A stretch of 64,000 nt of DNA from a virus, in the IMG/VR virus record IMGVR_UViG_3300042898_002309, positions 33,025 through 97,024 of that record, one strand, 5' to 3'. The translations under genes were made by a program, and so were the position numbers. A model generated the notes under the pieces. That model did no database searches and had not been told where the DNA came from. It saw nothing but the letters and a program-made list of their open reading frames with translations. Of this stretch, positions 1,459 to 64,000 are shown one piece after another (position 1 is the first letter of the stretch; each line of letters opens with the position of its first letter).

Positions 1459-4400
1459 TTATTTTTTTGATTGGTTTATTTGATTTAATGTTATATTATT
1501 TGCACTTTCTAAATCTATAATTTGATTATTTAATACAGCTGGTACTAATTCAATGTTTCCACCATAATTTTGAGATGGTGTATAATCTGTTCTTACATCC
1601 CATGTTCCATCAGATAAAAGAACTCTTATTTTATGTTGTACACTATAACCACCTGGCATATTTGCATTTGCTGTTATTACATAACTATTATTTGGATCTA
1701 TTGGACTTACATATTTAAAACCTTTTTCACCTTGTGCATTAATTACACCTTCAACTGGACCCATTCTTGATTTTTTTGCTAATGTATTTGACCAATGATT
1801 ATTTGGTGCTACAAATGAAATACCATATGTCATTGCTGAATTTGCTTCATCTTCTGTTATTAATCCTGTTGGATTAGTTTTAGTAATAATTAAATCTTTA
1901 TATGTTTCAGGACTAAATTTAAATATCATTGCAGATTTATTACTGTCTTCACCTGCAATAATTGCATGTTGTACATAAGATCTTCCAGGAGTTTCTCTTT
2001 GAGATAATACTTGTATTAAATTTATAATTTTTTGAGTGTGGGCATTTCCCATTGCTTTAGAAGCATCTAATGTTCCTTTACTAATACCACTAAATGTAGC
2101 AGTATAATTTTTTGAATCAGATTGATTAAAATTTTGTATATCTCTTATTGTTTCATTAAAAATAGCATTTCCAACAGCACCAGGTACTTTTGGAAGAACT
2201 TCAACTGCTTGTAAATCCATTGAATATTTAGCTGTTTTACCACCTGCTGATGTTCTACCAACTACATCATATCTTTTAATTTCATTACTTTTTACAATAT
2301 TAGTATATGCAGTATTTAATGAATTATATACCGATTCAATATCAGATGCACTATTTAACTCATTAATGTAATCATTTACTATTTTAGCACCTGTATCATT
2401 TGGTTTATACCATGCAGATTCTTTTGGTTGTGCTTTACCTGCAGCAATTCTTTTTTTCAATTCATTTTGTTGTGCAGTTGTTAAATTATTTGGTTTATTA
2501 GTAATATCACTAATACTATATACATTATCCATATTATTAAGCATAAGATATTTATCTTCACCTTTTTTAGGTAAATTTTTTGCTAATGCTGCTGTATTTT
2601 TTAAAAATTTAGTTTTATCAATTAAATCTAAACCAGATACTGATGAATTTGCAATTTTTTCTGCAGTTATATCATCAATTCCTTGTGATTTTAATACTCC
2701 TTTTAATGAAGTTACTATTGTTTTACGATTTGCAATATCAGTTTGGTATATACCTTTTAATGCTGAAGTATATGTAGACATTTTTAATCCAGCACTTAAT
2801 TCTCCATCAGGTGAATAATTCATATTATTAATATAAGTTGCTACAGATTCTCTTGCATTTTGACTTTTTGCATATGCATCAATTGCTTGTTTTAATTTTA
2901 TTAATTTTGCAGTACCATAAGTATTTAAAAAAGCTGTTGGATTTTTATTATACTCTTCTAAAAATTTAGCAGGAGTCATCATTTTCATTGTTCCTCCAAT
3001 TAATTCATCTCTTACAGTAGTACCTTTTAACATTGCTGATACTACTGGAAGTGCAACGTTTGTTGAACTTAATTCATTACTTAACATATTCATAGTAGTT
3101 GATAACCACGGTGTTACATTTTCTTTTGCCCAATCACCTTTTTGTTCTCTGTTTTCAAGTACACCTGAATTTGGATCAGCAGCACCAGCACCACTATTTG
3201 CTCCTGGTAATGTAAAAGTTTGAAAAACATTTTCATTATCAACTATTTGACCTTGTGCATTAATTACTTTGCTACCAGTATCTACACCTTTTAAAAGTAT
3301 ATCTCTTTGAAATTTAAGATCATCATCTTCTCTTTGTGCTTGTCTTGTTCTTTGTGCTTCATCTACTCTATACATATGAGCTTCTGCTTGTAATGCAAAT
3401 GGATTAGCTTGATAATCTACTTTAACATGGCTATCAGCAAAAATAAGTGCAGATTCTTGTATATCTTGACTTAATAATAAACTTGCAGTACCTACATCTA
3501 CTTTTTGTCTTAATGATGCAATATCTGAAAAAGGATTATTATCTCCTGTTGTAGTTGATAAAGTTCTTGAATTAGGGGTATTTACTATATTATTAACAGT
3601 TTCATCATTTGCTAATACAGCATCAGTTACTGCAATATTTTTTTTAAGTTGTTCAAGATATGCATTAGTATTAATATTTGCGTCACCACTTTCTATAGAT
3701 TTAGTTACTTCTTGTTCTCTATTACTATTTACAGTTTGTTCATTTTTTGAATTTTCATATCTTTGTTTAGAATATTGACTTATATTATTATACTGTTTTG
3801 TCAAATACTCTCTTTCAGCAAGATTAACATCCCCTCCATGAACAGCAGCATTTTGATACATGTAATCTTTTCTATTTAAATAAGCCTGAGTTTTATAAAC
3901 ATCTGCAACAGCAGGATCTGAACTAAATTGAGCTTGAAGTAATTTCATTAATGGTTCAACAATAGCTTCTCTTCCTCCAGTAGTCTTAACAATAAATTTA
4001 CCATCAAATTCAATTGGTGCTTCAATTTTATCAAACCCATTATCTTTAGCAATTTTTTGAGCTTTTTCAATTATATTAAGATAAGGAGTGTAAGATACAT
4101 TACCAAGATTCATTGTTTCCTCAAGAGTAGAATTTTTAAATTCTTCAGTTCTATAATCAATTTCTCTTAACCCATCATCCCAATATTTTGCTGCTTGCTT
4201 TTCATCTTTATTATTTTTTAAACCAAGACCATATTCTCTCTCACTATTTTTATTTTTAGTCCAAGCCATATCTTTCATAAGATGTTTATCTTGATAGAAA
4301 GGTTTAAATACTTGAGTAGCTTGATCAACATTTTGTTGTAATGATAAATCTAAACCAGAAACACGTTTTAAATTAAAGTCAATTGCTTTAAGTAATTCAT

Positions 4401-4593
4401 CTTTCTTTTTAAGATTATCTCCATGAGTTAAATCTGCATAGAAATATTGACCATAAACATTATTTAATGCTTTATAGTTTGTATCATACTGATTTTGCTT
4501 TGTCTGTAATGTTTTTGCATAAAAATTTAAATCAGGTTGAAAGGGTTGAAATTGAGGTATAAAATCAGTAACTCCTTGAAGATATGTTGCCAT
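1459..4593 (-). CDS. Putative internal virion (cargo/ejection) protein, 1044 aa
   Basis: Long ORF with helical/coiled-coil character and N-terminus MATYLQGVTDFIPQFQPFQPDLNFY. Lies downstream of the tail stabilisation gene, as crAss-like cargo genes do. Confidence 0.55.
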   Translation of the reverse strand: MATYLQGVTDFIPQFQPFQPDLNFYAKTLQTKQNQYDTNYKALNNVYGQYFYADLTHGDNLKKKDELLKAIDFNLKRVSGLDLSLQQNVDQATQVFKPFYQDKHLMKDMAWTKNKNSEREYGLGLKNNKDEKQAAKYWDDGLREIDYRTEEFKNSTLEETMNLGNVSYTPYLNIIEKAQKIAKDNGFDKIEAPIEFDGKFIVKTTGGREAIVEPLMKLLQAQFSSDPAVADVYKTQAYLNRKDYMYQNAAVHGGDVNLAEREYLTKQYNNISQYSKQRYENSKNEQTVNSNREQEVTKSIESGDANINTNAYLEQLKKNIAVTDAVLANDETVNNIVNTPNSRTLSTTTGDNNPFSDIASLRQKVDVGTASLLLSQDIQESALIFADSHVKVDYQANPFALQAEAHMYRVDEAQRTRQAQREDDDLKFQRDILLKGVDTGSKVINAQGQIVDNENVFQTFTLPGANSGAGAADPNSGVLENREQKGDWAKENVTPWLSTTMNMLSNELSSTNVALPVVSAMLKGTTVRDELIGGTMKMMTPAKFLEEYNKNPTAFLNTYGTAKLIKLKQAIDAYAKSQNARESVATYINNMNYSPDGELSAGLKMSTYTSALKGIYQTDIANRKTIVTSLKGVLKSQGIDDITAEKIANSSVSGLDLIDKTKFLKNTAALAKNLPKKGEDKYLMLNNMDNVYSISDITNKPNNLTTAQQNELKKRIAAGKAQPKESAWYKPNDTGAKIVNDYINELNSASDIESVYNSLNTAYTNIVKSNEIKRYDVVGRTSAGGKTAKYSMDLQAVEVLPKVPGAVGNAIFNETIRDIQNFNQSDSKNYTATFSGISKGTLDASKAMGNAHTQKIINLIQVLSQRETPGRSYVQHAIIAGEDSNKSAMIFKFSPETYKDLIITKTNPTGLITEDEANSAMTYGISFVAPNNHWSNTLAKKSRMGPVEGVINAQGEKGFKYVSPIDPNNSYVITANANMPGGYSVQHKIRVLLSDGTWDVRTDYTPSQNYGGNIELVPAVLNNQIIDLESANNITLNQINQSKK

Positions 4594-61370: not shown

Positions 61371-61910
61371 TCAATTAATTGTGTATAGTTCATAATATAC
61401 ATACAATGCACCATTCCAGTTATTAACTCCAGCTATTGCAGGATTTGCATTATAAAAATTAAAATCTAATCCAGTTGTAGCTCCTGTAGCAATTAAGTGT
61501 GGAATAGCATTGTCAGTTATAGTGTTTTTGTAATATACAGAATACTGTACATATATATTATCTCTATTGGCTAAAGTAAGATCTAAATCTAAATTATCAA
61601 TTGTAAAAGATACTGAAGTAGCATAAGCTGGATTAGGAGTTAAAGGAGCAGATGATCCCATATTAAGAATATCAATAATACCACGAGGAGTATCTACTGT
61701 TACAGTACCAGTAATTGCCATGTCTAACTCATAATGTTTAGTATTACCAATATTACCTGCTGTTACTGCATCATTTAATGTCATTGCTACTGTAAGATAT
61801 TTGTCATCTCTTTTTGTTGACGGTGTACCTACAGCAATTAAAGATCCATCTGGAGGTGTAGTAGTTACACGCTTTGCTTTGATCCAGGAAATAAAATTTA
61901 AAATGTCCAT
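61371..61910 (-). CDS. Putative virion decoration protein, paralog 2
   Basis: N-terminus MDILNFISWIK.KR...KRDDKYL. Confidence 0.55.
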   Translation of the reverse strand: MDILNFISWIKAKRVTTTPPDGSLIAVGTPSTKRDDKYLTVAMTLNDAVTAGNIGNTKHYELDMAITGTVTVDTPRGIIDILNMGSSAPLTPNPAYATSVSFTIDNLDLDLTLANRDNIYVQYSVYYKNTITDNAIPHLIATGATTGLDFNFYNANPAIAGVNNWNGALYVYYELYTIN

Positions 61911-61958
61911 GATTATTTTTTTTATATATATATACTATAATATACAAAATAATTATAT

Positions 61959-62045
61959 AAAAAACAAAATCCCAGAAAATTAATCTGGGATTTCCTTACC
62001 TAGCTAGTCGAATAAATAGTCTAATACTGAGAATAATAGTTTAGC
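61959..62045 (-). ncRNA. Candidate small RNA unit A
   Basis: TATATTGC at 62050-62057, ~50 nt body, TAGGTAAGG, then terminator AAATCCCAGA...TCTGGGATTTTGTTTTTT; no ORF. Confidence 0.5.
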
Positions 62046-62072
62046 TAGTGCAATATATAAATAATATTTTAA

Positions 62073-62294
62073 TCAGATATACTTTTTTAATTTTTTATTT
62101 CTAATTTTTTTTGCCTTATGTATACTTTTTCTAGCAGAGCTTCTTGTACTAACCATTTTATTTTTAACTCTCAGGTCTTCCTTGAATACAATCTTACTAC
62201 GCATTGCCATATCATCATTGTGACTCCCTCCTTGATTATAGTTAGGACCAACTGATGCACATGAATACAATAATAATATCAAAAGCCATTTCAT
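62073..62294 (-). CDS. Small lipoprotein
   Basis: MKWLLILLLYSC signal peptide II / lipobox; very basic C-terminus. Confidence 0.65.
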   Translation of the reverse strand: MKWLLILLLYSCASVGPNYNQGGSHNDDMAMRSKIVFKEDLRVKNKMVSTRSSARKSIHKAKKIRNKKLKKYI

Positions 62295-62758
62295 TTCTTT
62301 AACTCAGCTATTCTTCTTTTTAAATATACTTCAGCTTTTTCCAGATCCTCTAACTCTTTAGCAGCATCTTTCTTTCCAGCACGTGCCAGATACTTAATTA
62401 CATTACCTAAGTAAAAATCTTTATCAAGTCCCCAAGCTTCAAGCACGTTGAATACTTCATATACATTTCCATCACAACCATAGTGAGCTGGTCTTAATGG
62501 AGAAGCTTTAGCAGTACAATCTGGTACTGTAACTGCTGTAGGTTTTGTTCCTGCAAAAGGATCTCTTCCTACATAAGGACTTGCTTCAGTTTTTCTGATA
62601 TAATCTTTATACATTTCTTGGTTTTTATTATACATTTCAGCCATAATCTTTAAACTTTTTTTATATGTATTAGATGTTTCAGGTTTTCCTACCATCCTTT
62701 TATAATCATCACAAATTAAAGAACTCATCTTACCAAACAATTGCAATATCATATTCAC
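62291..62758 (-). CDS. DUF3310 (SaV-like) protein
   Basis: PAHYG...FYLGNVIKYLARAGKK...EDLEKAEVYL. Confidence 0.8.
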   Translation of the reverse strand: MNMILQLFGKMSSLICDDYKRMVGKPETSNTYKKSLKIMAEMYNKNQEMYKDYIRKTEASPYVGRDPFAGTKPTAVTVPDCTAKASPLRPAHYGCDGNVYEVFNVLEAWGLDKDFYLGNVIKYLARAGKKDAAKELEDLEKAEVYLKRRIAELKK

Positions 62759-63020
62759 TTACCATCAACTTAATACCTCCATCAACTTCAAGAGCCTCTG
62801 CATTCTTGATAGCATTAACACCAATGTAAACTACATCACCTGCTTCTAAAGTTTTAACTTCTTCACCAACTGCATACACTGTTAACTTGGTCCATTTCTT
62901 CATGTCCTCAGCATCCATGTGTGCTTTGTCAGCTTCACTTAATTCAATCACAGATTCTTTTCTTTCTGGCTGACTGATTAATACTCTACGTCCCTTAAGA
63001 CTTTTAATTGCTTTACTCAT
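62730..63020 (-). CDS. groES: GroES-like co-chaperonin
   Basis: KSLKGRRVLI...SVIEL...VYAVGEEV...AGDVVY...MVSEYDIAIV matches the Cpn10 pattern. Confidence 0.75.
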   Translation of the reverse strand: MSKAIKSLKGRRVLISQPERKESVIELSEADKAHMDAEDMKKWTKLTVYAVGEEVKTLEAGDVVYIGVNAIKNAEALEVDGGIKLMVSEYDIAIVW

Positions 63021-63061
63021 AATACTATGTTTTAATTATCCAGTAAAGATAATAAATTTAT

Positions 63062-63078
63062 TAAACAATTAAAGTTTA
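63062..63078. promoter_or_regulatory. Palindromic operator-like site TAAAC-N7-GTTTA
   Basis: taaacaattaaagttta, upstream of the groES-like gene. Confidence 0.55.
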
Positions 63079-63081
63079 AAC

Positions 63082-63168
63082 AAAAAAATAAGTCTAGAAT
63101 TTTACATCTAGACTTACCCTGATAACCAATCAAAACAATAACCATTATAAATCGCAAAACAATAATGA
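63082..63168 (-). ncRNA. Candidate small RNA unit B
   Basis: TATATTTG at 63174-63181; terminator TAAGTCTAGA...TCTAGACTTATTTTTTT at 63082-63116; no ORF between them. Confidence 0.55.
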
Positions 63169-63185
63169 TATCACAAATATAAGTA

Positions 63186-63449
63186 TTATTCAAATACCTT
63201 ATACATTCTATTAAATTTTTTTTCTGGCATGAGTGAATATGTACCGGCCCAATCCTGTATCACATAGTCCCCCGGTACTAATCTAATTTCACCATTATCA
63301 GTAGTGAGAAAAAAGCTATCAAATTTATGATTGATATAATTAATATGTCCCTCAAAATTCTCATATCCGGAAATCTTAATAGCACATTCCTCTGTACCAT
63401 CATACTGTATAGCCTCAATACTCTTAGGCCTTTCTCTATATAACTGCAT
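63186..63449 (-). CDS. Conserved phage protein (PGDY-motif type)
   Basis: YRERPKSIEAIQYDG...PGDYVIQD...F...Y; TATATTTG promoter element at 63465-63472. Confidence 0.65.
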   Translation of the reverse strand: MQLYRERPKSIEAIQYDGTEECAIKISGYENFEGHINYINHKFDSFFLTTDNGEIRLVPGDYVIQDWAGTYSLMPEKKFNRMYKVFE

Positions 63450-63477
63450 AACAAATAATTTTTACAAATATAATAAT

Positions 63478-63543
63478 AAAAACAAAACCTCCAGATTACT
63501 CCAGAGGTTTCCTTACCTAACAAATTATGAAATGTTTTTTTAC
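63478..63543 (-). ncRNA. Candidate small RNA unit C
   Basis: TATATTTG at 63549-63556, then TAGGTAAGG and terminator AAACCTCTGGA-GTAA-TCTGGAGGTTTTGTTTTT. Confidence 0.55.
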
Positions 63544-63560
63544 CAATACAAATATATAAT

Positions 63561-63690
63561 AAAAACCCCAGGTAGTAATTCTTGATCAGAGAAACTTTCC
63601 TGGGGGTAGTAAAGTTATAGACATTGTCCTTTCCCTTACTAAGAAGTCCAAACCTGGGACGCTGATCTTACGGGAAGCGTGTCTGGCACC
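63561..63690 (-). ncRNA. Candidate structured small RNA unit D
   Basis: TATATTTG at 63696-63703; GC-richer hairpins; terminal CCCCAGG...CCTGGGGTTTTT. Confidence 0.5.
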
Positions 63691-64000
63691 TAATACAAAT
63701 ATAAAACAATTCCCCCGGAATACACCTTACCTATAATAAATAAATACGGAGATGGATTTATTATGTGTAGGAGGATGTAGTGGACCCTAGCTCTGAAGCC
63801 CCCGGCCTCCGTCCAAAACCATGGGTCCCCCATACCTTTGTACAAAGACCTAAGGAGCTCTGCACAGAACTGCGCAAACTTTTACCTCTGGCAAAAAGTT
63901 ACTCAGCTCTGCTTGCTCTCCTTGAGCTTTGCATCCTGCATCCTGCTGCTAGCAGTCAACAGTCTGTCTACTAACCCTGAGGACAACTTGAATTTAAAAA

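Follow-up and report, generated by a model that had tools for sequence, protein, structure and literature searches.

Non-coding RNAs of lytic phages, above all those of Bacteroidota phages, are to our knowledge almost unexplored. Phage T4 produces the stable RNAs C and D, small structured RNAs with no known function, whose genes lie in the cluster of phage tRNA genes and are co-transcribed with them. Here we describe an array of five gene-less promoter-to-terminator units, designated A to E, on the minus strand of an uncultured phage genome. The window analysed is the whole 64,000-nucleotide stretch that forms the last 64 kb of the 97,024-base IMG/VR record IMGVR_UViG_3300042898_002309; units A to D lie at 61959-63703 of this window, and unit E lies upstream of them at 63705-64000.

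Other described systems invite comparison with this locus. In T4-type phages, promoter-early stem-loop (PeSL) cassettes undergo indels and replacements at the joints between terminators and promoters (PMC2839356, PMC4122927). Bacteroides thetaiotaomicron has GibS and the FopS family of small RNAs, and the FopS RNAs bind the RRM protein RbpB and act on start regions (PMC11697453). In the crAss-like Cellulophaga phage phi14:2, two intergenic regions of unknown function are transcribed above most genes throughout infection, and host-type promoters drive the middle and late genes and precede tRNA genes (bioRxiv 10.1101/2020.03.07.982082). A preliminary description of our locus had grouped units A to D as one putative family of phage small RNAs, acting either as antisense silencers of host or early phage mRNAs or as protein sponges. 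The analysis presented here does not support a single family: D belongs to a large family of its own, a 3' module is common to C and A, and B is distinct from both.

RESULTS

Anatomy of the array

Each of units A to D consists of a -7 box, followed by 65-130 nucleotides (nt) without a conserved open reading frame (ORF), and then by a hairpin with a U-tract (Table 1). The four minus-strand boxes noticed earlier were confirmed at all coordinates, including the non-canonical box of unit A, while a TAnnTTTG-type box, judged on the -7 element alone, precedes units B, C and D as well as a gene for an 87-amino-acid (87-aa) protein. The 97-kb genome contains TATATTTG 23 times. Of the 17 minus-strand copies, four fall within 532 nt here, compared with about 0.09 expected. 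At the other end of the units, the hairpins and U-tracts that had been proposed were recovered for A, B and C by a terminator scan, which detected 5 sites in 4 kb versus 1.2 in shuffled sequences, and for D as a seven-pair stem with a long loop and a U-run, a structure that exceeds the loop limit of the scanner. The unit terminators are strong, with energies of -14 to -17 kcal/mol and long U-tracts; the terminator of E, which overlaps the promoter of D, is weak. The downstream genes each have their own promoter, and no alternative anti-terminator pairing was visible. The earlier reading of the interiors as lacking a credible ORF also stood, as no unit from A to D has a conserved one: the 37-codon ATG frame in B is shortened to 8 codons in L002 and L005 (related loci are designated by L and a number), the 12-codon ATG frame in D has lost its start codon in most members of the D family, and C contains no ATG.

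Table 1. Positions of the units and promoter boxes in the window, from the contig end inwards
Feature	Position	Strand	Description
Unit E	63705-64000	-	Structured RNA, 45-49% GC; 5' end at or past the contig end
-7 box of unit D	63696-63703	-	TATATTTG
Unit D	63562-63692	-	Structured RNA; short-form member of the D family of phage RNAs
-7 box of unit C	63549-63556	-	TATATTTG
Unit C	63476-63545	-	A/U-rich variable 5' part of about 27 nt, TAGGTAAGG at 63511-63519, terminator at 63484-63511, U-tract
-7 box of 87-aa gene	63465-63472	-	TATATTTG
87-aa gene cassette	63186-63472 (ORF 63186-63449)	-	Separates unit C from unit B; function unknown
-7 box of unit B	63174-63181	-	TATATTTG; 100% kept in all five close relatives compared
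Unit B	63080-63170	-	RNA of about 88 nt; terminator at 63085-63120; minimum free energy (MFE) z-score -4.0
-7-like box of unit A	62050-62057	-	TATATTGC, non-canonical (TTGC in place of TTTG); directly after the stop of a 73-aa lipoprotein-like gene
Unit A	61959-62046	-	Interior of about 45 nt closed by a palindromic stem, TAGGTAAGG at 61994-62002, terminator at 61966-61994, U-tract

Unit D is a member of a covarying RNA family

The D family has members at no fewer than 67 distinct loci among the phage contigs of IMG/VR; exact copies of the 26-nt word in the loop of the last hairpin of D occur in 56 viral contigs, and a degenerate pattern for hairpin P1 matched at least 120 contigs. The architecture of the family comprises an optional 5' hairpin P0, the hairpin P1 with an inner stem and a conserved 12-nt loop carrying the word CCRUAAGA, a helix P2 that encloses the variable hairpin P3, which may be as small as a triloop or hold a 45-nt insert, and the terminator hairpin P4, with a covarying apical stem and the palindrome UGAUCA in its apical loop. 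In an alignment of 45 sequences to the structure model R1, which is fitted to the model and hence leans towards the structure, 92.2% of cells were paired and 28 of the 38 pairs were changed on both sides; slid alignments gave 32-48%, and none of 500 shuffles reached the observed value. An independent MAFFT alignment of 27 sequences had 91% of cells paired and 12 pairs changed on both sides. Moreover, since the 45-sequence set includes members found via P1 alone, the P4 loop was not fixed by the search. We conclude that the D family has a conserved secondary structure backed by compensatory changes. The preliminary description had named model searches in related phages as a check, and it was this family that they recovered, with covariation.

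The D copy of the window scored 135.8 bits with model R1 (E value 4e-31) and was the only strong match in the genome, and the model gave one strong match per locus in the related loci. The copy folds with an MFE of -40 kcal/mol (z-score -2.6). Wherever upstream sequence is available for a family member, a TAnnTTTG box precedes its loop word by 102-575 nt, and in five contigs a D-family RNA lies directly downstream of tRNA-Asn, under one promoter. The predicted tRNA-Asn/D transcript opens with an 80-nt leader that is conserved between L016 (5366-5449) and the corresponding positions of L021, L026, L030 and L061, and which has its own hairpin and U-run and recurs as a separate class in the census of gene-less units given below.

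Searching more widely, we found the exact D loop word once in 185,000 prokaryote genomes, on a 5.6-kb contig that is probably phage. Neither the D-family RNA nor the P1 hairpin was found by blastn against the whole cultured-phage collection, and model R1 found nothing in phi14:2 or in Chryseobacterium phage MA9V-3. A search of the whole window against Rfam 15 at the gathering score gave no match, the families without a match including GibS/FopS, 6S, SRP, tmRNA, RNase P and Flavo-1; at E values up to 10, the region 61800-64000 yielded only chance-level terminator look-alikes on unit A. A scan of the window for tRNA and transfer-messenger RNA (tmRNA) genes found none, and the Rfam search of ten related loci returned tRNAs only. 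The D family is absent from Rfam, phage-specific and widespread in phage contigs.

About half of the P1-pattern matches, among the matches listed, are single hairpins and not D-family RNAs. These lone hairpins have the same 12-nt loop, a compensating outer stem and a T-run, and in uncultured phages they follow stop codons by a few bases, immediately precede start codons or adjoin tRNA genes (L079:4426-4482, L085, L102, L075, L090, L096 and about 45 more); in L010, one stands behind the B unit. The lone hairpin has no match in Rfam. Because the same hairpin stands alone at 3' ends, D reuses a module which also serves these phages as a hairpin at 3' ends.

Units C and A share a word confined to gene-less units

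The word that A and C had been seen to share in front of their terminators, TAGGTAAGG, is confined to three sites of the genome when both strands are searched, all of them on the minus strand, each leading straight into a hairpin and U-tract: in C, in A (Table 1), and at the 3' end of E (63725-63733). The seven other clear terminators of the genome are without it, and no complement of the word was found in any phage transcript. Across the loci we counted at least 45 distinct alleles of the C/A plan, which runs from a -7 box through 20-50 nt of A/U-rich sequence to TAGGTAAG with a purine-rich A-tract, a hairpin and a U-tract, with a predicted RNA size of 65-90 nt for C and A. The hairpin stems of this class differ by compensating changes, including U-G pairs that would be A-C on the opposite strand.

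Of the 38 distinct instances of TAGGTAAG plus terminator in 1.5 Mb of DNA from related phages, 35 have a -7 box in the 80 nt upstream, and the same fraction of the TAGGTAAGG cassettes enclose non-coding interiors of 20-75 nt. The remaining three instances, which have no -7 box, resemble chance matches inside coding sequence, and nowhere in this DNA did the word and terminator stand without a promoter directly behind a gene. Since TAGGTAAG occurs with a nearby -7 box in nearly every instance, the word belongs to dedicated short transcription units and not to terminators generally. The possibility that the units are remnants of deleted gene cassettes, which would have undone the preliminary description, is contradicted by the relatives, where they are kept as promoter, short transcript and terminator, each of these 35 with its own -7 box. 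A census of gene-less promoter-terminator units made without using the word gave 112 distinct units, 26 of which contain it; there are other classes as well. One such recurrent class, with the 5' word GUGUUCAUAA and a G+C-rich terminator, is found in L015, L039, L046, L056, L064, L070 and L114 and has no relation to the TAGGTAAGG class. C-type units frequently neighbour D (median 143 nt apart), and each is also found alone.

Conservation and shuffling of units among relatives

Eleven related contigs were gathered via the 87-aa protein, and segment identities were compared in five close relatives. Promoter boxes and motif-plus-terminator segments are mostly 92-100% identical in the relatives (full range 80-100%), and the neighbouring genes are 83-91% identical in the more distant of them. 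The interior of unit C is 30-57% identical in four of the five close relatives and 96% in L009, its motif and terminator being 80-100% identical; the interior of unit A is 51% identical in L007/L008, with 97% for its motif and terminator. The replaced stretch between promoter and motif measures 25-45 nt in these units, and its flanks are 97-100% identical in those relatives. Some interior alleles preserve a small hairpin or a duplicated word despite sequence change. The duplicated words noted earlier in A and B are present. That of A is a 10-nt word in 62003-62047 of the window, and the L024 allele likewise contains a duplicated word, of different sequence. In the distant relative L010, an A-type unit without the word keeps its place, its terminator and a canonical promoter box. 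Unit A may double as the 3' untranslated region (UTR) of the upstream three-gene operon.

The relatives gain, lose and duplicate whole units at promoter and terminator joints. Unit D and one promoter are missing in L002-L006; in L009 two C-type units stand in tandem, their terminator stems differing by compensating changes; an additional cassette of promoter, gene and terminator follows the A terminator in L002, L003 and L005, where the terminator is duplicated; and the order is swapped, with C before D, in L022, L023, L047, L055 and L066. The joints themselves, 63476-63519 with 63465-63472 and 63705-63733 with 63696-63703, are 66-100% conserved (mostly 93-100%). As a separate observation, the N-terminal half of a DUF3310 gene (window 62496-62731) is swapped for an unrelated shorter sequence in L001, L002-L006 and L009, with both flanks more than 90% identical.

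Units B and E

Unit B is a unit of its own, conserved in position. Its position behind the 87-aa gene and its terminator are kept, with compensating stems, as far as L010, L074 and L080, and its interior is conserved among close relatives only. The sequence GGGTAAG, described before as the counterpart in B of the word shared by A and C, is indeed present, but it does not qualify as a shared motif, being largely the base of the terminator stem and not kept as a motif in relatives.

Unit E ends with TAGGTAAGG, a small hairpin and a short U-run, and has seven long homologues in other viral contigs at 77-84% identity. The consensus fold of E reached -60.9 kcal/mol on the minus strand, with a negative covariation term, versus -30.2 kcal/mol on the plus strand, with a positive term, and many G-U pairs occur in the fold on the minus strand only. 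As E folds far better on the minus strand, it is probably a structured RNA of about 290 nt that is read in the direction of the array and forms its first unit. In L001 and other close relatives, E is represented by its 3' domain alone. The G+C content is about 28-30% in general and 42-49% over 63600-64000; an assembly chimera at this GC-rich contig end was considered and rejected, because the stretch is conserved in the seven other contigs.

Searches for pairing targets

The preliminary description had suggested that the RNAs may silence host or early phage mRNAs by antisense pairing. When the interiors of A, B and C and the loop of D were paired with 75 phage start regions, the duplex energies were no better than those of shuffled RNAs. 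Complements of the D loop in the genome did not go beyond chance 10-11-mers, and 25 interior alleles searched for spacer-like or complementary matches in the genome and in about 70 related loci gave only chance 10-14-mers. Antisense silencing of phage mRNAs, and the idea that a unit mirrors a phage start region, gained no support from these comparisons.

Genomic setting and the 87-aa neighbour

The record is classed as linear, with a completeness estimate of 82%. The minus strand carries all long genes of the window, among them those for the large terminase, the portal, the major head protein and giant virion proteins, with crAss-type PHROG matches; the genes in the first 33 kb of the record, read at the record start, are oriented oppositely. 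From these opposite gene directions, the array lies at the head of a leftward block, adjoining the contig end, and thus heads a 64-kb block of co-directional genes that includes the structural genes.

The 87-aa protein corresponds to PHROG 419/1810, of unknown function. In 48 of the 67 distinct loci, the D-family RNA is followed at a distance of about 270 nt by a homologue, which makes the protein the most constant neighbour of D. Its predicted fold is a small beta structure with two helices (predicted local distance difference test score 91), for which a Foldseek search gave nothing at an E value below 0.3. The protein was also tried as a candidate RNA-binding partner and rejected, its best VIA-align match (Pelota N-domain, Z 4.1) being within noise.

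DISCUSSION

Directly observed here are the anatomy of the units and the way in which they are conserved, the covariation, and the gain and loss of entire cassettes. On this basis we give an even chance to the interpretation that the array forms an island of genes for non-coding RNAs, whose transcription by the host polymerase would start at Bacteroidota-type TAnnTTTG promoters and stop at intrinsic terminators. D, and E upstream of it, would be structured RNAs, with D acting as a stable protein-binding or decoy RNA and not by base pairing. C and A would be modular small RNAs composed of a variable single-stranded 5' part, the fixed UAGGUAAGG, and a terminator hairpin that is kept only as structure. 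In these two units UAGGUAAGG and the hairpin may provide a handle for a protein, and the variable part may pair with targets outside the phage genome, most likely host transcripts. B would be a separate small RNA conserved in position, and all the units would reside in cassettes that recombine at conserved joints.

Several points weigh against this interpretation. Transcription is deduced from the sequence, for this phage and its relatives alike. Targets were sought within the phage genome and related loci and none was found; nor was a candidate binding protein, the 87-aa protein giving a confident model that has no meaningful fold match among solved structures. The variable interiors show no measurable constraint and could therefore be neutral filler between two conserved signals. 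Finally, the promoter box of unit A is non-canonical, so that A may be only a 3' UTR.

The main rival is a reading in which only D and E are RNA genes, and C, A and B are PeSL-like terminator-plus-promoter cassettes serving as insulators and recombination joints, with transcripts that are by-products and interiors that are recombination filler. We think this possible but somewhat unlikely. The indels between relatives fall exactly at the joints, as seen in the loss of D, the tandem C units of L009, the extra cassette and the swapped order of C and D, and the interiors have neither a detectable constraint nor a target, both of which such cassettes would explain. They would not explain the confinement of the word to gene-less units or its position on the transcribed side of the hairpin: the TAGGTAAGG terminator never stands directly behind a protein gene, having instead its own promoter 20-80 nt upstream, the word is missing from the other terminators of the genome, and certain alleles of the interior have retained a small hairpin or a duplicated word although their sequence changed.

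Going beyond the island of RNA genes, one may ask whether the C/A units are programmable guide-like RNAs, in which the fixed 3' handle, UAGGUAAGG with its hairpin, is held by a phage or host protein and the fast-changing 5' part of 20-45 nt directs that protein to nucleic acids of the host or of rival phages. We judge this quite unlikely. If it were true, lytic Bacteroidota phages would carry small swappable guide arrays, and the D RNA would be a second, independent ribonucleoprotein component.

Equally doubtful is a cis-acting leader system, in which stacked strong promoters would fire into conditional terminators and a factor binding UAGGUAAGG would permit late read-through. The place of the units at the head of the co-directional block, the weak E terminator overlapping the D promoter, and the likeness of a fixed linear word plus hairpin to nut-type sites would suit such a system. 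However, every downstream gene has a promoter of its own, the terminators of the units are strong, the place and order of the units vary in relatives, and no anti-terminator pairing is visible. That the units encode very small peptides is very unlikely, since against the ATG frames in B and D stand the truncation of the B frame in two relatives, the lack of an ATG in C, the missing start codon in most D-family members, and changes in D that follow base pairing and not codons.

The D family combines strong covariation and dozens of members with no database entry. In the C/A class the conserved part is the tail and not a seed, which points to a dedicated binding protein. One hairpin module recurs in two roles, as a terminator of genes and as the opening domain of a structured RNA, and the cassette shuffling known from PeSLs seems to operate on RNA genes outside the T4 group.

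Among the systems introduced above, the T4 RNAs C and D resemble the D family in being small structured phage RNAs beside tRNA genes and co-transcribed with phage tRNAs, which for the D family is a prediction; the host phylum and the promoter type differ. Phage phi14:2 has its non-coding regions near one end of a crAss-like genome, as here, and their transcription, observed in that phage, sets a precedent for the predicted transcription of the units. The phi14:2 regions differ in measuring 1-2 kb and have no sequence or model relationship to the units; neither TAGGTAAG nor the P1 loop word occurs in the first 9 kb of that genome, which hold its non-coding regions. In passing, we observed that the long non-coding region of phi14:2 (NC_021806) between g004 and g006 includes, at about 4150-4560, a 5' end and a 3' T-arm/acceptor typical of a tmRNA gene; this region gives one of the abundant transcripts for which the phi14:2 study offered no explanation.

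Like the GibS/FopS RNAs, the units would be small RNAs of Bacteroidota that exist in multiple copies, start from a canonical host-type promoter, have a single-stranded stretch at the 5' end and stop at an intrinsic terminator. However, FopS conserves a 5' seed, whereas here the 5' part varies and the word before the terminator is fixed, and no Rfam match links the units to that family. The PeSL cassettes are alike in that both systems join a conserved terminator hairpin to a strong host-type promoter, repeat this arrangement among small non-essential genes, and undergo insertions, deletions, duplications and replacements at the joints between relatives. PeSLs, however, flank protein-coding ORFans, whereas several of the cassettes described here enclose only 25-130 nt of non-coding sequence, one of them a covarying structured RNA; they carry a fixed word on the transcript side of the hairpin, and their promoter is the Bacteroidota TAnnTTTG type and not that of sigma-70.

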